Source: Rhina ancylostomus (taxonomy: Eukaryota). Taken from it: a DNA stretch of 64,000 bases. Made by a program: the position numbers and the translations under genes. Every line of letters begins with the position of its first letter. Position 1 is the first letter of the stretch. The notes below the pieces were generated by a model, which saw only the letters and a list, made by a program, of their open reading frames with translations, did not search any database and was not told where the DNA came from. Shown in pieces: positions 19,695 to 46,986 of the stretch. Location: the NCBI GenBank assembly GCA_030265395.1, contig JARFYF010000017.1:42839889-42903888 (forward strand). The letters run 5' to 3'.

Positions 19695-19859
19695 ATGGAT
19701 GCTATAAATCGCAACTGCACAGTCTCGGTGCATTGCGGTAATCTACGAGTGAAGATGGTTGTGATATTTCCAGTGCAGTACCCAAACAACGCTGCCCCTT
19801 CTTTCCAGTTCATTAATCCCACCACCATCAGTTCCAGCATGAGGACTAAACTCCTTAAG
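19695..19859 (+). CDS. WDR59: WDR59 exon 14 (MDAINRNCTVSVHC...FPVQYPNNAAPSFQF...KLLK), RWD domain; GC donor
   Basis: cag|ATG...AAG|gcaag, 165 nt; YPxxxxP RWD-type motif. Confidence 0.94.
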
Positions 19860-20502
19860 GCAAGNNNNNNNNNNCAAAGAATCTGGCTGTCGACTTCCAT
19901 ATTCTACCCCAAAATCCTCCCCACCCGCCTCACTCCACACTGTTAAATGAGTGAAGAACACTCTGTGAGAATGTTGATAATAAGTGTGCTAATTTCAAAT
20001 GCAGTGTTAAGATGAGGTTCTGTCTGCCTTTTCTGATGGATTAGTTGAAGAGCTTGGAGCTTTCCTGGTATTCTGTCACTACAAGCAGATTAATTGGTCC
20101 ACTTCATCACTTTTTTGGGGGTTTTTGCTGTGCACAAAATGGTTGCTTTTCCATTTAAGCAATCAAATTAATGAATTGCATATGAAATGTTCTTGACCAG
20201 ACAATAACGTACTATGTAAATGCTTGCGAGTGTGTACATTGCTGTGTGTGCATCTTAAGTGATTGAGGTGGTATATCTGTGGTTGATTTTACGTGTGGGT
20301 GCTTTTATATATCCTGTCTGTATGGTGTTAATTTTATTTGCCTGTACCTCTCACTTTCTCTTTATTTTTGTCATTATTACTGATGTTGTGTATTTTGTGT
20401 GTCTCTGTGTAAGGGAGTATGGTGTATTTTTGTGGTGGGCATGATCTCTGCTGTCCATTTGTTCCATTGTGAATTTTATAAACCTGTCAATTGTTGCTGC
20501 AG

Positions 20503-23803: not shown

Positions 23804-24019
23804 GTTAGTGACCTTAAATGGGTTTTATTTTATTTTATTTTATTTGTCATTTAAAGTAGGCTTCACTTGCCACGACAAAGGGCTGGGAAAACAGGTCCAT
23901 GAGAAACGTTAATATTTAAGTCTTTTTGATCAAGCTAATGGGAAGGAGTCTGTGAAATAAACAAGTCATTTGAAATGGGAGGGGGGAACCATCTTGGGCA
24001 CCTGTGTTCTTCCAGATGG

Positions 24020-25142
24020 CAACAATGGCCATTGGATGAATGACTTGGTGTAAGTCTGTGGACCTGATTGGAGGTTTGTAACCAGTGGTGTACCACAGGG
24101 ATTGGTGCTGGGACCTTTGCGTTTGTGATGTATATTAATGAATTAGATACAAATGTAGGAGGTATGGTTAGTAAGTTTGTGGATGACATGGAAATTGGAC
24201 AAGAATAGCGAGGAGGGTGGTCAAAGGTCACAGCAGAATGTAGTTCACCTGGAAAGTTGGGCAGAGTATTGGCAGTTGGAATTTACCAAGAAGGGTGAGG
24301 TATTGCATTTTGGGAAGTGAAATAAGGGTGGGACATGTCCAGTAATTGGGAGGGAATTAAGGAATGTTAATGANNNNNNNNNNNNNNNNNNNNNNNNNNN
24401 NNNNNNNNNNNNNNNNNNNNNNNNNNNNNNNNNNNNNNNNNNNNNNNNNNNNNNNNNNNNNNNNNNNNNNNNNAGTAACTGGGAGGGAATTAAGGAATGT
24501 TAATGAACAGCAGGAACATGGAGTTCAAGTCCATAGTTCCGTGAAAGTGGCAACATGGGTAGATAGGGTGATGAAAGGGGCATATGGCAGAGAATATAAA
24601 AGTTAGGAGGTTATGGTGCAACTTTGCAAAACACTTATAGGCTGCATTTGTAGTATTGGAAGGATGTGATTGTGCTGAAGAGCGTGCAGAGGAGATCCAC
24701 CAGGGTGTTGCCTAGAATGGAGGGCTTTAGTTATGGGGAGAGACTGGATAGGCTGAGCTTGTTTTCCCTGGAGTGAAGGAGGCTGAGAGGTGACCTGACA
24801 GAGGTATACAAAATTATAAGAGGCAGAGACAGGATGGATCATCAGATTCTCTTTTCCATGGTGGGCATATCGAAAACAAGAGAGTATAAGTCTTAAGGGG
24901 ATCTGAGGAGAAAATTTTATACACAGGGAGTGATTGGTATTTGGAACTTGCTGCCAGAGAATGTGGTAGAATCAGATAAAATCACTACATTTAAGAAGCA
25001 TTTAAACAGGTACTTGAATAGGCAAGACATAGAAGTATATGGACCTGATGTGGGTAAATGGGATTACTGTGGATGGGCAACAAGGTTTGCATTGATGGAG
25101 TGGGCCAAAAGGCCCGTTTCTGGGCTGTACAACTCTATGACT
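24020..25142 (+). mobile_element. 5'-truncated CR1 LINE
   Basis: SGVPQGLVLGP, YINELD, SKFVDD motifs; WNLLP near the ORF end; 3' tail aactctatgact. Confidence 0.85.
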
Positions 25143-25527
25143 TGTTTGAGATTATCAAAAGAAGTGCAATTTGCTTCTGTTTTATTGCAGTCTTACTGTG
25201 AGGAGATTGACAAGCTTTCAGTTTCTTGCCATCCACAGCAACTGGTATACACTGTGAAAGTCAAGGGTTTGCTGTACCTCCTGTCATATGAAATTTTGCA
25301 TTACAAAGGGTTCTTTGGAAAGGACAAAGTACTGACTGCCAGACAAGAATGCCCAAGCTGCCAAAATATTAGCAATTTTTTTAGCAAAGGAGAAGCAAAT
25401 AAATGAGAAGTATATCAAAATAAGGATAAAAGTAATGTCATTTCAGTCAGTTGTCAGAGCCTAAATCTGATTTGCATGTTGGTCCAAAACAAATGACGAC
25501 AAAATTAAGTGAATTTATGTTGTCTAG

Positions 25528-25597
25528 GTTATCTTGTATACTTCATGAGGCCAATGACTCTTCATCGGACAGTGTCTCCAACAGAACCCACGCCCAG
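25528..25597 (+). CDS. WDR59: WDR59 exon 17 (YLVYFMRPMTLHRTVSPTEPTPR)
   Basis: tag|GT...CAG|gtaaag, 70 nt. Confidence 0.95.
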
Positions 25598-26589
25598 GTA
25601 AAGAAGGACTAATATCATTAGCGAGTTTACATTTCTGTTATTTATTTTGATGTGGCAGATGAGAATCAGCCAGTTGTACATTGTAGGATCTGTTACCAGA
25701 TACCTGTGTATGATCCCTTATAAAGCTGTTCAAGTTGAGTGAAGGAAGATATTTTTGCTGGGGTGATGCAGAGGATTAAGGAGAAGGTTCTTGGGCCTAG
25801 AAATGCAGCTGTACAACACCCAAAAAAAAAAGTAGCATCGTGCAGACAAAAATCAGGTTAATGCCAAGTCGACCAATTTTGTGCATATTTCTGAGTGAGT
25901 CTAATTGTTGCAAAGCTACGGACTTTTTAGTTCAAGAATTTTACATATCCAAGCACTGCTTATCTGTTGGCCAGCATGCCCAACAGTTTGCAACTTCATA
26001 ATTCATCTCTGGTGTGATTTTTCAACCATGTTGGTTTGAGTCATGGCATGCTGTCCTCTCAAAGAAGAACTTTTAATAGTACTGAACCTCAAGCAGATTT
26101 GTGTTTAAAAGGTCTGGCATATTTTCCTACAGTGAGAGGCAAAGGTTTGTATAACTCTGTCAAACGAGCTGCAGATATACGGACCCAAACTGAGATAACA
26201 GTCTCTGGGTGATTTCAGCTGGTTTCTCCTCTAAATTAAGAGACTGGAAGTGCTAGAATGAATCCTGCAAAACCAGTTGTTCTTTCATGTTTATCGGATC
26301 AGAAATGAGTGAAGGATGTAGAGGAAATCATATGAGAATATAGATGATAATCATGAAAGGAAGTTATCAGTAAGGACATGAGTGTCCTCTATGCACCCCT
26401 CACTATTGAGAGCACTATAGCTGAAAGCCTATTCCAGTTAGAAATACAAAAGCCATATTCACCAAAAATGAAAGGTTCCCCACTTTGCTCTTAGAACTGT
26501 GGGAGCAATCCAGGCCCTTTGGTTTGGTTGCTAGATCTGTTGTGGGAAACAAATGCAAGTCCTTGCAATGTTTTATGATAAATGCTATA

Positions 26590-26949
26590 TCTGACACCCC
26601 CTTGTTCATTAATAAGATGAGAGCTCATGGAATTACAGGAAGGATATTAGAATGGGTGGAGCATTGGCTGATAGGCAAAAAGCAAAGGGTGGGAATAAAG
26701 GGATCCTGTTGTGGTTGGCTGCCAGTTACAAGTGGTGTGCTGCAAGGGTCAGTGTTGGGCCACTTCTTTTTACATTATACATCAATAATTTAGATGATGG
26801 AGTAAATGGTTTTGTGACTAAGTTTGCAGATGACACCAAGATAGGTGGAGGAGTAGGGAGTACTGAAGAAACAGGAAGGTTGCAGAGAGACTTAGTTTAG
26901 GAGAATGGGCAAAGAAATGGCAGATGAGATTCAATGTTGAGAAATGTGC
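26590..26949 (+). mobile_element. CR1 LINE reverse transcriptase fragment running into an N gap
   Basis: VTSGVLQGSVLG, YINNLDDG, KFADDTKIGG, MRFNVEKC. Confidence 0.88.
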
Positions 26950-28514: not shown

Positions 28515-28668
28515 GTCACTCTCAGCACTCTCTGCATATCACAGTGGAGGAATCACCCCGATGAAGATCCGTACAGAGTCACAGAGTAATCTGAGGTTAT
28601 ATAGTGGAAGTCCAACCCGCAGTGAGAAGGAGCTGGTGTCCATTAGCTCCTTCTATTATAAGGAGCGA
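28515..28668 (+). CDS. WDR59: WDR59 exon 18 (SLSALSAYHSGGITPMKIRTE...SISSFYYKER)
   Basis: tag|G...CGA|gtgagt, 154 nt. Confidence 0.96.
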
Positions 28669-32600: not shown

Positions 32601-33070
32601 CTTGTTAACAAGAGCTTGTGGTGTCTCAGGTGAATGGAGAAGGTGTTGTGGGCTGTGAGCATTCAGCATGTGTTTTGGTGGTTAATGACTTTCACACAGT
32701 GTCCTCGAAGTTTGGTCAGCTCGAAGTTCATCCATCTTTCTTGGGAACTTCTTAATGAAAGATAGAATGTGGCTACATCTGTCTTGTGCAAGAAAAACTT
32801 CAAATCTGGAAATAGCAGTTGACTGATGAACCTACCTTCATGCTGGTTTACAGTTTTATCTGTACAGCTTGGGTCTTGATTGTCTATAGATTAGAAACTG
32901 AACTATATTGCTCTTTATAGCCAGCTTCTCCCTGAGTGTCCCATTATGAAGTTTATCTTTTTTGTATGTTTCATTTTATTTTATGTGTGTGTATTTTTCT
33001 TCCTGTTGAGTTAATTTTTTTTATTTTCTTGGTGTTTCTCCTTTATTTTTGGTGACGTTCATACTTGCAG

Positions 33071-33127
33071 ATGTCTCCTCTCTCCAACCGGCGGCGCTGG
33101 TCCATTCAAGCCATTAATGAGTTCCCG
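33071..33127 (+). CDS. WDR59: WDR59 in-frame cassette exon between exons 18 and 19 (MSPLSNRRRWSIQAINEFP)
   Basis: Long U-rich tract then cttgcag|ATG...CCG|gtactg; 57 nt, phase 0/0, no stop, CpG-retaining; resembles the RRRWSIQAINDFP insert I recall in the longer mouse Wdr59 isoform. Confidence 0.85.
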
Positions 33128-33751
33128 GTACTGTGCACATTACCGTCCTGCGTTTGCACCCTTGCGACTTTGGGATGGCCAGTTGCCCTCTGAGTAACAA
33201 TCCTTTCACCAACACTTGGTTCCTTTCACAGAGAGACTATGATTGGATATTTTTTGTTCAGTCTTCAAAAGCCACTCACTCATGCTGGGATGGTTGCAAG
33301 TTCATGACTTGCGTTGGCCTGAAGGACCTACAGAAGCTCCTCACACTTGAATGAATCCAGACAGAAAGCATCAGTGGACCATCCAGTCATAATGGTTTTC
33401 ACAACTGAGCTTGCTTATGTACTTAATTGAGATTCACATTTGTGAATTACTTAACAGCAAGTACACTGGATCACCTTTGTTGTGATTTTATGTATTATTT
33501 TCCCTTCGCAATCCCAAGGATGCTAGTGACAATTGAAGCATCTTAGCTTCTACCCAAGATCACTTATTTCAATATAATTGGAAATTCTTAGTCTATGTGA
33601 ATCTGTATCTGTTCTCCTGATTGGAATGAGATAAGGTGCAGCTGGCCATCCCACTCTTGGGCAGTTTGAAACAACTCCTGCTTTCCACACTAATGTTTTT
33701 CCTTTTGTATGACTTTAATTCCACTAGATAGTTACTGTGCTTAAGTAACTC

Positions 33752-33775
33752 TGCATGATATGCATGATATGCATG
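33752..33775 (+). promoter_or_regulatory. Triple tandem RBFOX element (TGCATG x3) downstream of the cassette exon
   Basis: TGCATGataTGCATGataTGCATG at 33752, 33761 and 33770. Confidence 0.6.
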
Positions 33776-34284
33776 CTACTCACCGAGAGCTGGGCTTTTA
33801 TTATATGTATAATTATTTTAAGAAAATGCTGTTCCATGTGCTGTTAGAGCATTACTTAGCTCTGCTGATTCAGGAACCATCACAAAAACAAGTTTGCACT
33901 TAGAAGTGTTCATTTATTCTGTATGCGTGTGTAGGTGTTCGAATGGGACTTTTATATGCACTTTAGTGAACCTGAGCAGTATCTGAACCTCAGGACACTG
34001 GTTTCTGTGCAAAGCTGCATGATCAGTGTGTTGCTACATGGTGGCAACTGATGACAAACTAAGACCAGTGGAGGAAATTGGTTCTTNNNNNNNNNNNNNN
34101 NNAAAGGCCATGGAAGTGTGCTACAAATGTTTATAAAGCTTTGGTTCACTAGGAAAGTGCTTGACCCTGTTGGGTCTGATACATATTGATTACTATTGCT
34201 GTTAAAAAAAATTCTTAATTTGCTTTTCACTCAGGTCCACCACTTTGGTTCATAGGTTCAATATGATGTCTGAAGAACAGACTG

Positions 34285-34770
34285 ACTGACGCAAAAAACA
34301 AACTGCTGGAAGAACTCAGCAGATCAAGCAGCATCTGTGGAGGAAAAAGGATGGTTGACATTTTGGGTTGAGACCCTGAATCAGGGTGTAGAGGGAAGTT
34401 AGCCAGTATATAGAGGTGTGGGGGAGGATAGAGACAGAGGCGAGTTAGGTGATAGGTGGAAACAGATCGGGGGTGGGGGGGNNNNNNNNNNGTCAGGGAG
34501 ATGCACATAAATCTCTGTGTCACCTGGACAGCATCCCTGGATTGTGGTGAGGGAGGAGGTGAAGGGGCAAATGTTGCACCTCCTACAGTTGTAAGGGAAA
34601 GTGACTAGAGATGGTGAGAGATGGATGGGAAGGGATGAGCAGACCAAGGAGTCATGGAGTGTGTTCCCTGGGTAAAGCAGAAAGGACAGTGGGGGAGAGA
34701 GGAAGTTGTGACTGATGGTGGGATCCCGTTAGAGCTGCAGGAATGGCGAAGGCTATGCTGGATGTGGAGG
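34285..34770 (-). mobile_element. Penelope-like element remnant with internal deletion
   Basis: Minus-strand TFPYNCRRCNICPFTSSLTTIQG plus terminal repeat with a hammerhead-like remnant. Confidence 0.7.
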
Positions 34771-36489: not shown

Positions 36490-36605
36490 CTCAATCGCCC
36501 TCTTCCTTTCCAGTCCTTATGAAGCGTCTTGACCCGAAAAGCTGACTGTTTATTTTCCTCCACAGATGCTGCCTGACCTGCTGAGTTCCTCCACCATTTT
36601 GTGTG
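36490..36605 (+). mobile_element. Penelope terminal repeat with a degenerate minimal hammerhead ribozyme
   Basis: CAGTC-CTTATGA-agcgtcttgaccc-GAAA-agct-GACTG then tccacagatgctgcctgacctgctgagttcctcca. Confidence 0.65.
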
Positions 36606-38372
36606 GTCACTTTTAAGAGACTTTTGAATAGGTACATCGAGCTGAGAAAAATTGAGGGCTATGGGTAAGCCTAGTAATTTCTAGGGTAGGGACATGTTCG
36701 GCACAGCTTTGTGGGCCGAAGGACCTGAACTGTGCTGTAGTTTTTCTGTGTTTCTATGTAAGGAATTTGCCAAGTTCTGAGCAACCTTAAATATTCTCTT
36801 TGCAAAGAAAGGAAACCAGACAAAGTAATACAAATGGAAATGATTGAAAAGTACATTTACAAACAGATATTGGAAAGTGATTGAGATTTACAAAGGTTCA
36901 TAAAAGGGAATGGGAAGTAGAGTGACAGAGAGAACAATAGAGGGAAGTTCAGAGAATAGAACCGAAAGGTTCCGCTACCTGTGATTGGTGAAAGTATGCA
37001 ATGCACTGAAGGCCAATACTGTAGGAACAAGCATTTGAAGCCACAATATAACATTGAAGATGGGATTGGGATCAGCAGAAGGAGGATTTTTGAATGAGTC
37101 CTCAGGGTAGTTGGAATGTCAGACTCAAATCAGGTAGTAAGGCTCAACTGCACCCTCTTTAATGACCACTGTATGATAAAACAGCAATTTGTGACACAAG
37201 ATTCATGATTATAGTCCATGTACATGGATTTACATTGTAGAACCTCCGTTGTGGAATAAAATTTTACATGAAACCTCCAGGTTCTTATCTCTTTAAGCTA
37301 ATATCATTCAAGCCCTACTGATGGAAATCAGCATTTTATTTGTATATATAGCTTCATGTGTGCTAATAATTTATTGTGTGCTATCTTCCATTATTTATCT
37401 CTCAGTTTGGTTTAAATACAATTGGTTTGAATCACTGAGTTAAAATAACTACAAACCTTATGCGATTCAAATGACAACAAACATTGCACTAATAATAAGC
37501 TTTTAATTGCTCTTAAAGCTTCAGCAATGATTTCCTTCTCATGCTTTGTGAGTAAAAAAAAGCATAAAATGCTTTCCCGATTTGTCATTGACTTATTTAA
37601 ATTGTTATGGATCTTACCTAAATATCAAGAACAAGATGTTTCCTTTAGGCAGATGGACTGAGTCTCCTCAGGTGCATTGTTGGTTTCTGTATTTGATCTA
37701 ATAATTCTATAGGACTCTCATTATTACAGGTAATTTCGTTAATAGAATTTTCAGCATTTCAATCTGCAGTTGCAGACCCAAGACTGGGCACTGAAAATTC
37801 TCGGGTATTCTTCAGTGAACACAGTGAATATTCCACTTAGATTAGAGACAGGATTGTGAACATTATTAAAGATTTCCCTGTAGCCAACAAAAGAATACAC
37901 AGAACAAAACCCAGTAATATACATGGGTTTAATTAAAATACGGAAAATTGTTTTAGCTTCCACAACTCACAAGGCCCAGAGACTTGCTTAATTTCCAATG
38001 ACTTTCTTTTAATTTCTCATAATTTTTGTTTTAATTAGTGTACAAGATGAATATTAAAGATGTTGCTTGATAGGAAGTAATCATTAATTTTTTTTTTGCT
38101 GAAAGACAGCTAGACCCATAAAATTGAAACAGGACTGCAGACACTGGAGGAACTCAGCGGGTCAGGAGGCCCTCAACCCAAAATGTCAACTGTCCATTTT
38201 CCCTCCATAGATGCTACTTGGCCTGCTGAGTTTCTTCAGCANNNNNNNNNNNNNNNNNNNNNNNNNNNNNNNNNNNNNNNNNNNNNNNNNNNNNNNNNNN
38301 NNNNNNNNNNNNNNNNNNNNNNNNNNNNNNNNNNNNNNNNNCAGTTGACGTTGATAAACTTCCTGTTCACAG

Positions 38373-38506
38373 AAATCACGTCGATGGAAAGGAAAGCGAG
38401 AAGGGACCGATGCAAACAACAGACCAATCAAAGCTGCAGGGAAAGTCATCATCCAGGACATTTCCTGTCTCCTTCCAGTTCACAAGTCACTGGGGGAATT
38501 GTACAT
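38373..38506 (+). CDS. WDR59: WDR59 exon 19 (KSRRWKGKREG...AAGKVIIQDISCLLPVHKSLGELYI)
   Basis: cag|AAA...AT|gtgagt, 134 nt. Confidence 0.96.
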
Positions 38507-40177: not shown

Positions 40178-40259
40178 ACTGAATGTGAATGACATCCAAG
40201 AGACTTGTCAGAAGAATGCTGCTGCAGCTTTGTCAGTTGGACGCAGAGACCTTGTTCAG
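40178..40259 (+). CDS. WDR59: WDR59 exon 20 (LNVNDIQETCQKNAAAALSVGRRDLVQ)
   Basis: cag|A...CAG|gtactg, 82 nt. Confidence 0.96.
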
Positions 40260-43200
40260 GTACTGAAGCTGTTCAACTTGTCCACCTGATAAATATATGA
40301 AAGAATTTCCACAATCTTCCCTCCCATCGGTTTTAAGGTGACTAATCTCCAGTTTCCTTGATTCATTCTATTTTCTTCCCAAATACAATTGTAACATTAG
40401 CCATCCACCCGCCCTCTGACACTCCTACCTCTTTTAACCAATTACTAAATATGTGCAATGTGTCTGCCTTCTTGCTTTGAATGCTTCAGTTAATAATTCT
40501 CTTTTTGTTCAAATAAAGTTATGTCACACCCAATATCACAGCTGCTTAATCATTCTGCCTGCTACATTCTGAAGTAGAATCACTATTTAATATTTCTGCC
40601 ATTTTGCTGTCACTGTCTGTGATTTTATACTTTCACTGAACGATCCTGTTTCTAAACTGACTTTATTTAAGTGCCTGTAGACTATGTTAATGTGAAGTAA
40701 TAAAACAGAAAATGCTGAAAACACTCAGCAGGTCAGGCAGCAGTTGTGGAAAGAGAAATGGGTNNNNNNNNNNNNNNNNNNNNNNNNNNNNNNNNNNNNN
40801 NNNNNNNNNNNNNNNNNNNNNNNNNNNNNNNAGGTAAGGTGGCAGGAGTTAATGGGCTGTTCGAGAGTGATTATGCTTCTTTGTATTATGTACTTTAATA
40901 TTGGAAAATATTGAAGTAAAGTCATTATTTAATATTTCTGCTGTTTGACTCTCACTGTCTATGATATACTATTGCTCAACAATTTTGTGCTTAAACTGAC
41001 TTGAGTACCTTGAAATATTTCAGTATACAATAAAATCAGAAAATGCTGGAAATACTCAGTTGGTCAGAGTGAAAAGAGAAACCGAGGTATTGCTTCAGAT
41101 CAAAGACCTTCCTCAGAATTGGGGGAGATGAAAAAGGTAATTTTCAGATAAGGTGGTAAGAGGGTCAAGTGAGTTAATAGGGCAGTTAGAGAGTGCTTAT
41201 GCTTCTTTGTTTTATGAGCTGCTAATGGCAGGTCTGTGGCACATGCCAAGCAGGTCAGGCTGTCCCAGCAGAGAAAAGAAACTGATCCAATATCACAGAT
41301 GGATGACTTGCAGCAGAAATGGCCAGTTCAGAATATGCAGTATATCTTTGCCTTGAAAATATTCTAAGACTCTGCCTTTTTTGAGGTTCACAGTCCTCTG
41401 AAAGAAAAAAAATGCTTCATCTTTGTCTTAAATAGGAATCTTTTATGTTTTAAACAATGATGTTTTGTTTGAGATTCTTTCACAAGTGAAAAAATCTCCA
41501 TATTTACCCTGTCAATATAGCTCAGGACCTTATTTCAATCTTTTCTCCATACAACGTTTAGTCTTGATTTTTCCACAGCTTGATGTCGTCCCGGATAGAT
41601 CTGCGCTGTTTCTGGACTTCATTTGTCTGCCAAACAGCGCTCCAAAATCTGTAATTACTTTATTATTGCTACATGCAGATTCCACCCATCCTATACCTGC
41701 TCAACCTTAAACCTTGGACTCCCTCCTCCTTTGTGCCAGTTTCCTGTTCATTCTTGGGAAATTTGTATAATAATTCTAACATGATTAATGTAAGTTTTCT
41801 GTCCTTTGCGTATGACACAATTAGGCTACCATTGAGATCTGAGTCACTATATCCATTTTTCTCTCTTTTGCTTTTCTGTGCTCAAACCAGACCCATTCTA
41901 AATCCTTTTTATGTTTTTTTTTCCATTTCACCCCTCTCGGTTATTTGGCCGCTCAAATTCAATACTTTTCAAGCTTCCTGCTCTCTTGTTGCCATCCCAG
42001 CCTTGGCTCCCTCTCAGAGAAGCTTCTATCTTCCCTGTGCCTCTCTGGCATATTCTGAAGGGCTCGTGGAGACAGAAGTGGACTGGAAACAGTGTTAAAG
42101 CTGGGGGAGACATTCAAGGAGGGGATGGTGAGGGATTAGAACAAATATAATTCCAGAAAACTGGGGAAGGGAACTTAAAAATCTTAAATAAGGCAAGAAG
42201 AAAGGGAGTTTATGACAGATACTGAAAACTCAACACTGCAGAAAGCCAAGAGGTGAGGTTAGCAGGGGAGAGAGGATCAAGGGAAAATATTTGCTGGTAA
42301 AATTAAAGGAAACCTGAAATCTTATATAAAAATGTGAGCAGCAAGAGGGTTGTAATGGAAAGAGTTGGAGCCCAAAGTAATAATTATGGTATAGAGGAGG
42401 AGTACATGAGTTTGCTTCCAATTGAAATCATTTTGTCTGATTTCACACAAGTAGAGAACAATAAACATTGATTTTAAGGAGGCAGAGTGATAAATAGAGA
42501 AGATATTAAATGGCCTAAAATTTCTAAAAATGGATCAATTGTCCAGGCTGTTGAAATAGTGGATGCTCTGATTTTTATTTTTGAATGCTTCTTGGCGAAT
42601 AGGCATGGTACTGTAAGACTGGAAGACCACTAACCCATAATCCTTGTTTTAACAGGGAGAAAGGGGCGTGTCAATTAATTACAGGCCACGCAGTGGTTAT
42701 GTTCTATTATTGGACTGATGTCTGAGGGATATAATATATTCTCATTTATTAGGCACAGTTTAATCAAAGAGAGTCATCTTGGATTTCTTAAGGCAGGCTC
42801 TTGGGTTGAAAAGTTTGAAGAGGTAACAAGGGCGGTCAGTGAGGATTGTGCATATGATGTTGTCTAAATGTGTACCTGTAAATCTCCTGTGTACCTTTTC
42901 TAGTTTAATCATGTTTGCTTTTGAACTGCCTTAAGAACTCTCTCATCCCGATCGCTAATCTCCTCTGGCCCAACAGTGTTTTAATTTAAAAATAGAAAAT
43001 ACTGGAACTAGTAGGTCAGGATGCACTTGTGGAGCAACAGTTATGTTTCAGGTTCATGACATTTCAATAAAAGAGGGAAAAGCTGGGGAAATACCTTCTA
43101 AGATTTAGAGAAGAGGTGAATTAGAGAAAGGAACAATACAGCACCCTCTTAAGGTTTTATGCCTCCTTTTCCAGGATGGGGTTTGGGCTTGTGATTTTCT

Positions 43201-46913: not shown

Positions 46914-46986
46914 TCAGGCTATGCTTCTTCAGGTTCCTATTCAAGCACATCTGAAACTATTGTTGGGTCCACTGGATGGAACATAG
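46914..46986 (+). CDS. WDR59: WDR59 exon 23 (SGYASSGSYSSTSETIVGSTGWNI)
   Basis: tag|TCA...ATAG|gtaaga, 73 nt, phases match. Confidence 0.9.

Follow-up and report, generated by a model that had tools for sequence, protein, structure and literature searches.

The WDR59 gene of Rhina ancylostomus, studied here in a 64,000-nt stretch of DNA (the window, with the gene and its elements on the forward (+) strand), contains a real, frame-preserving alternative exon of 57 nt which is conserved in jawed vertebrates and has both included and skipped isoforms on record. On balance, we favour a reading in which this conserved cassette, with a likely counterpart in mouse that the cortex turns on postnatally, adds 19 residues that are likely to form a PKA-type site in a likely flexible loop of GATOR2. 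Public annotations already contain the exon and a published table lists it, so it is not a discovery as such; what is new is that an invariant kinase consensus and a postnatal switch come together with a predicted RNA bridge in an exon that the deposited structures lack. The familiar class of regulation and the existing annotation limit the surprise.

The window carries exons 2-26 of WDR59, numbered on the presumption that exon 1 lies upstream of it. Spliced alignment joined 25 exons and the cassette into a single uninterrupted frame of 981 aa, sharing 890 identities with a horn-shark model (P0124), the boundaries of exons 23-25 being uncertain in this alignment. The gene also matched the human WDR59 chain in the PDB, and local tblastn identities peaked with ray models, at 0.91 to a sawfish protein, with 0.84-0.89 to seven other cartilaginous-fish models. 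By the same alignment and by sequence, the upstream flanking exon 18 (28515..28668) ends in phase 0; the downstream flanking exon 19 (38373..38506) starts in phase 0 and opens onto the segment lying at the boundary of SEC13 blade donation; in the accessible text of PMC12507694 the constructs divide at residue 651/652. Since exon 18 ends at 28668 and exon 19 starts at 38373, the intron between them spans 9.7 kb (4,402 + 57 + 5,245 nt). Within it, the cassette (33071..33127) has AG on the acceptor side and GT on the donor side, is in phase 0/0 and encodes 19 residues, according to translation, spliced alignment and peptide comparison. An initial annotation, made from the letters alone, had placed a 57-nt in-frame exon exactly there, and all of its coordinates hold; its description of the exon as hidden is wrong in substance, because public protein models already contain the cassette. 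The 57-nt length is unique among the mapped WDR59 exons and the cassette region is single-copy in the 2.2-Gb genome. Sequencing runs were set aside as evidence on splicing, as the four runs cover exons and introns alike, like genomic DNA, and the listed joints are repeat-derived.

The acceptor of the cassette is preceded by a T/TG-rich tract (32950..33070). T makes up 0.61 of the 120 nt upstream, compared with 0.31-0.44 at 20 other WDR59 exons (exon 19, which sits behind an N run, was left out), making this the most T-rich tract in the gene among the exons compared and bearing out the U/UG-rich acceptor described initially. The nearest upstream AG had been correctly placed at 33009, but its spacing is ordinary: the AG-free zone of 58 nt is exceeded at 4 of 21 other exons and is unremarkable. 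The donor (33128..33136), which the initial annotation called modest, is weak, matching five of nine consensus positions where other WDR59 exons match 4-8. The donor of exon 20 (40259-40265) has the same six intronic bases, and this hexamer alone therefore does not make an exon alternative. Two Caretta caretta models (P0081, P0085) have five extra residues at the start of the cassette, as an alternative acceptor lying 15 nt further upstream would produce.

A metagenome scan for the cassette returned 53 pattern matches and two loci. One of these (L002) is an amniote-type WDR59 contig in which exon 18 and the cassette lie 3,757 nt apart; the other (L003) was rejected as a chance match, with 10 of 19 residues shared and no WDR59 exon 18 nearby. 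The cassettes of the window and L002 differ at 11 bases, eight of them at third codon positions, with seven synonymous and three non-synonymous codon changes. This dominance of synonymous changes, together with a peptide that is identical across mammals and a bird, argues for constraint at the protein level. Approximately 100 nt upstream of the cassette aligned to L002 with a score of 59, which none of 300 shuffles reached, and the first nine intron bases on the donor side are the same in both. A short element at 33178-33198 bears some resemblance to L002 4128-4151. Judged from sequence against this one distant locus, the intronic flanks of the cassette are conserved.

To describe the distribution of the two forms, we classified 232 proteins, made up of 120 of the 421 matches to exon 18 (searched with a query lacking the cassette) and 112 cluster members. 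The cassette was skipped in 128, included in 64 and included without the next exon in four; the others had no next exon (25), no anchor (7) or other insertions (4). Both forms are on record in Callorhinchus (chimaera), Stegostoma (zebra shark), Latimeria (coelacanth), Acipenser (sterlet), Danio (zebrafish), Ascaphus (tailed frog), Sarcophilus (Tasmanian devil) and Felis/Panthera (cats), these records being database models and mostly predicted XP entries, and models with and without the cassette range from chimaera to gorilla. A cassette-directed search, which selects for similar peptides, returned 75 proteins, of which 24 are identical over a 40-aa region; this identical set takes in a bird as well as marsupials and placentals, with gorilla and orangutan among the latter. 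The orthologous peptide looked for in other vertebrates was thus found, and the earlier proposal of an ancient jawed-vertebrate cassette is upheld by included forms from chimaera to primates. No jawless fish or invertebrate was among the 75 proteins. Among 46 distant representatives the loop was spanned in 42, with the motif in one of these, a fish-like sequence, and the single lamprey WDR59 model is a skip form; because this outgroup survey holds one model per cluster and cannot prove absence, a jawed-vertebrate origin is a lower bound on the age of the exon. The 15 cluster members listed out of 864 contain no inclusion record from human or mouse; the one human record and the Mus musculus record in this set are skip forms. 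In five models from fish, coelacanth and stoat (P0058, P0164, P0171, P0172, P0307), the cassette is present, exon 19 does not follow and the models end short, which suggests truncated isoforms without the C-terminal cage region. The cluster of P0234 groups fatty acid 2-hydroxylase proteins with WDR59 and is probably a clustering artefact.

Comparison of 40 distinct 19-aa cassette peptides showed RRWS followed by I, V or L, and next by Q, in all 40. The initial annotation had named an RRRWS motif; the RRWS-hydrophobic core of it is invariant, whereas the third arginine is kept in only 15 of the 40. Eight offset records, excluded from this count, all show RRWS followed by V or I. Conservation of W and S is partly by construction, because the peptides were anchored on W-S; the same RRWS core was present in insertions found without using the cassette as query. 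The PKA consensus is R-R-x-S-hydrophobic. The cassette core therefore reads as a PKA-type consensus and a predicted phosphosite, consistent with the basophilic kinase consensus claimed at the outset. W, Q and the hydrophobic residue at +4 are also near invariant, a degree of conservation beyond what a kinase site requires. No phosphopeptide for the cassette serine was found in mouse-brain proteomics supplements, which contained nothing relevant and no usable Wdr59 site table. No useful match came from the supplements of PMC8187152, PMC4387716, PMC12663429 (gene-set and expression rows only), PMC11814087 and PMC11914583. Full-text literature searching with the cassette peptide likewise gave no match. 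Insulin-regulated WDR59 sites are mentioned in a figure in the accessible part of PMC13066455. Exon 19 opens with a second R-R-W (38373-38390), so that two of these motifs follow each other when the cassette is included. A local duplication may have given rise to the cassette, or the cassette may be a competitor of the R-R-W of exon 19.

The human WDR59 chain in the PDB (974 aa, five entries), the one full-length version of the human protein among the PDB entries searched, is the skip form, and its lack of the 19 residues agrees with the earlier claim that the peptide is absent from the canonical human protein. The cassette would sit between R622 and K623 in human numbering. In the cryo-EM models 9DX0, 9DX1 and 9DX2 the chains jump from T581 to approximately 626-630, leaving all three without residues ~582-625, although the construct contained WDR59 residues 1-651 (boundary 651/652; PMC12507694, accessible part). 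The loop is therefore likely to be unmodelled and flexible, as seen in these skip-form chains, and lies just ahead of the SEC13 blade-donation boundary. The R-W of exon 19 is visible in the Sestrin2-bound 9DX1 chain and absent from the 9DX0 and 9DX2 chains. An AlphaFold2 model built from a 24-sequence alignment was set aside, because pLDDT was low (mean 49, with blocks of 20-39 over 501-698) even in parts known to be ordered. A tether-length role for the insert was rejected, on the reasoning that residues 521-581 upstream of the loop are in the modelled chains. WDR59 (Sea3) links two subcomplexes, GATOR1 and GATOR2, and the available portions of PMC13370336 and PMC9646525 treat its role as context-dependent and unresolved.

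A 57-nt cassette of mouse Wdr59 (CA-319481-49064-52421-52478-58185) is listed as coding, known, 'under selection' and in the core of module M1+ in the retrieved rows of Datasets S5 and S9 of Weyn-Vanhentenryck et al. 2018 (PMC5989265). It shares gene, length and frame preservation with the window cassette and has similar flanking introns (3,357/5,707 vs 4,402/5,245 nt); on gene, length and intron sizes, not on sequence, it is very probably the orthologous event. The mouse entry differs from the present analysis in being a bare table row without function. In the same rows, cortex PSI from E14.5 to 21 months is 0.15, 0.28, 0.21, 0.32, 0.37, 0.53, 0.50, 0.51 and 0.50, a rise from 0.15 at E14.5 to approximately 0.5 from P15 onward, and a second mouse series reads 0.22, 0.04, 0.35, 0.43, 0.56, 0.59, 0.60 and 0.53, with the limit that PSI in bulk cortex can shift with cell composition. 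The published cortex range of 0.15-0.53 is larger than the change of 0.2 used as the criterion for a developmentally regulated neural exon, and module M1 denotes switching between P4 and P15 in the accessible text of 10.1101/247601. The tissue-regulated splicing proposed initially thus stands in so far as these rows show the exon regulated and not constitutive; the regulation documented there is developmental, in cortex. In the portion of 10.1101/247601 available, the 12-nt microexon of Kdm1a/LSD1 is a comparable neurodevelopmental exon that adds or removes a phosphosite. The WDR59 cassette differs from it in its length of 57 nt, above the 27-30 nt limit of SRRM4-type microexons, in that phosphorylation is predicted, and in its target, an mTORC1 regulator. 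A second mouse Wdr59 cassette, of 54 nt and in no developmental module in the rows seen (CA-319481-62952-63853-63907-64195), likely corresponds to exon 23 of the window near 46914.

Downstream of the cassette, hexamer and tandem-repeat searches located three TGCATG hexamers at 33752, 33761 and 33770 (33752..33775), spanning 24 nt and 625 nt from the cassette donor, as a candidate distal RBFOX element; a fourth copy lies at 34016..34021, within the first kb. The initial annotation had the position of the triple right, but its copies are not independent: one perfect 9-nt repeat, present in 2.7 tandem copies, makes up the whole triple. TGCATG is under-represented in the window (41 observed vs 57.9 expected), and the first kb downstream holds four copies for the cassette against 0-1 at 21 other exons; of 500 shuffled versions of the downstream intron, 15 had a close pair. 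The window has no TGCATG in the 300 nt next to the cassette donor, a span that takes in the approximately 200 nt of proximal RBFOX action, and none lies within 250 nt either side of the cassette in L002. Distal RBFOX sites were reportedly described by Lovci in 2013 as acting via RNA bridges. As far as the accessible text of 10.1101/840272 goes, the active zone of RBFOX is about 200 nt and distal sites can act through such bridges.

Complementarity searching and folding predicted a long-range RNA stem in this intron, with a 5' arm at 33171..33189, overlapping the 33178-33198 element that resembles L002, and a 3' arm at 33634..33653 (16 bp ungapped, 19 bp with one bulge). The strength of its predicted 16-bp helix (33171-33186 with 33638-33653, -32.5 kcal/mol) was matched in 0 of 600 dinucleotide shuffles, at 0 of 23 other donors and at 1 of 120 random positions, and a partition-function fold gave its core pairs a probability of ~1.0; when G-U pairs were ignored, 9 of 300 shuffles did as well as the stem. 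The arms do not belong to a local repeat, and there is one 3-mismatch copy elsewhere in the window. The predicted stem would cut the distance from donor to triple from 625 to 141 nt, with the hexamers partly paired in the folded model. As in the distal RBFOX and RNA-bridge systems described in the available part of 10.1101/840272, the cluster lies more than 500 nt downstream and a predicted stem would bring it inside the ~200-nt zone; unlike those systems, the WDR59 bridge is a prediction and the stem does not appear in L002, the one distant locus examined. Directly before the triple there is a 7-bp local hairpin (33730-33750), whose 5' arm is complementary to 33193-33198, six bases of the donor-proximal element shared with L002, and which could form a second, competing bridge.

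L002 carries a TGCATG pair at +1768 with a spacing of 9 nt, and 30 of 2000 shuffles produced a pair no more than 15 nt apart; around the hexamers, however, window and L002 show no alignment beyond chance, 225 of 300 shuffles scoring as well. Stems as strong as the best in L002 arose in 182 of 600, 35 of 53 and 109 of 300 comparisons, so none there is significant (an earlier, looser test gave 1 of 60). A bridge between L002 4415-4680 and 5526-5739, which pair at ~0.66, was rejected, as their complementarity is not above that of shuffles. Rfam gave no match in the window or L002. The direct RBFOX control claimed at the outset has found no support so far: in the published network the mouse event is flagged 0 for Rbfox, and also for Mbnl, Nova and Ptbp (PMC5989265, retrieved rows). 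That network has a sensitivity of 57-78%, and its Rbfox perturbation data come from C2C12 and HeLa cells (10.1101/247601, accessible part). The predicted RNA bridge in this genome keeps RBFOX control alive, and promotion of cassette inclusion by RBFOX in this fish is plausible on these models, if somewhat short of an even chance, and established nowhere.

Set against RBFOX, we give an even chance to control by MBNL, CELF, PTBP or SRRM-type factors that read the acceptor tract and the donor-proximal bases, with the triple a product of chance slippage and the stem incidental. The conserved intronic sequence, which lies upstream and at the donor and not around the hexamers, points this way, as do the single tandem repeat behind the triple and the lack of a significant stem in L002. 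The mouse exon is not called an Rbfox target, and its late timing fits Mbnl, late switching being more typical of Mbnl targets (10.1101/247601, accessible part); yet the retrieved network rows do not call it an Mbnl or Ptbp target either, YGCY is low downstream (3 in 300 nt of the window), and the window stem and the L002 TGCATG pair are each unlikely by chance.

Under the reading we favour, skipping of the cassette would be the default, because the donor is weak. Inclusion would rise as the brain matures and add R-R-W-S-hydrophobic between R622 and K623. The cassette serine would be the target of a basophilic kinase, PKA being the likeliest, and its phosphorylation would change docking on the loop beside the SEC13 blade and could alter GATOR2-GATOR1 coupling only in the cells that include the exon. 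In this fish, the 16-bp stem would loop out approximately 450 nt and bring the TGCATG triple to approximately 140 nt from the donor, and RBFOX might then, tentatively, promote inclusion through the bridged triple.

What the peptide does can also be read in other ways. It is unlikely, in our view, that it acts as a phosphorylation-independent docking motif, or as an alternative copy of the exon 19 R-R-W that competes for a surface of SEC13 or another partner. The near-invariance of W, Q and the +4 hydrophobic residue would suit docking, as would the second R-R-W at the start of exon 19, whose R-W is present in the chain of 9DX1 and in neither 9DX0 nor 9DX2, but the serine and the hydrophobic residue at +1 are invariant and a deletion variant (P0361) retains RRWS-I while losing Q. 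Nor do we consider it probable that the serine serves another basophilic kinase (AMPK family, CaMKII, PAK or RSK) or creates a 14-3-3 site. The AMPK-family consensus prefers a hydrophobic residue at +4, and 39 of the 40 peptides have one. The consensus motifs in question also call for L/M at -5, arginine at -5 for AKT/S6K, or proline at +2; against them, the cassette peptides have a small residue at -5 rather than L/M, no arginine at -5 and no proline at +2. In the accessible part of the review PMC12753737, AMPK already phosphorylates WDR24, which counts in favour of such a kinase here and is in any case a precedent for kinase input on a GATOR2 subunit that alters mTORC1 output. That site is demonstrated and is described there without isoform dependence, whereas the WDR59 site would be splice-gated and is predicted. 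That the insert leaves mTORC1 signalling untouched, its conservation reflecting splicing or something else, seems very improbable: WDR59 constructs numbered 1-974, the skip length, do rescue knockout cells and form the cage (PMC12507694, accessible part), but synonymous changes dominate against L002, and mammals and a bird share one and the same peptide.

Phosphorylation of the insert by PKA remains our preferred reading of the peptide. In adult mouse cortex approximately half of the transcripts appear, from the retrieved PSI rows, to include the 19 residues and with them the invariant kinase consensus, yet human WDR59 in the PDB is the skip form. The two isoforms and a single serine mutant would offer a direct probe of whether nutrient sensing is wired differently in the mature brain. 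A bolder and decidedly unlikely version would have maturing neurons, since the origin of jawed vertebrates, splice a PKA site into GATOR2 via an RNA-bridged distal RBFOX element, giving a cAMP-to-mTORC1 input at WDR59; the deposited structures would then represent the other isoform, and the switch would help to explain context-dependent activation or inhibition of TORC1. Literature searches on splicing, Rbfox, structure, phosphorylation, isoform and peptide, judged on listings and the starts of abstracts and reaching few subscription papers, returned no paper on the WDR59 cassette, and the accessible parts of PMC12130464 and PMC9934350 held nothing bearing on it.

Other features of the gene were noted in passing. 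In the spliced alignment the donor of exon 14 appears to be GC, not GT (19859-19861), with an N run close behind. Introns 16 and 17 contain ORF fragments (24000-26900) with a resemblance to reverse-transcriptase pieces of a LINE element. The intron downstream of the cassette carries short high-copy repeats in opposite orientations (34298-34372, 36553-36602 and 38172-38241; 84-90% identical), and these could form long-range stems in the pre-mRNA.
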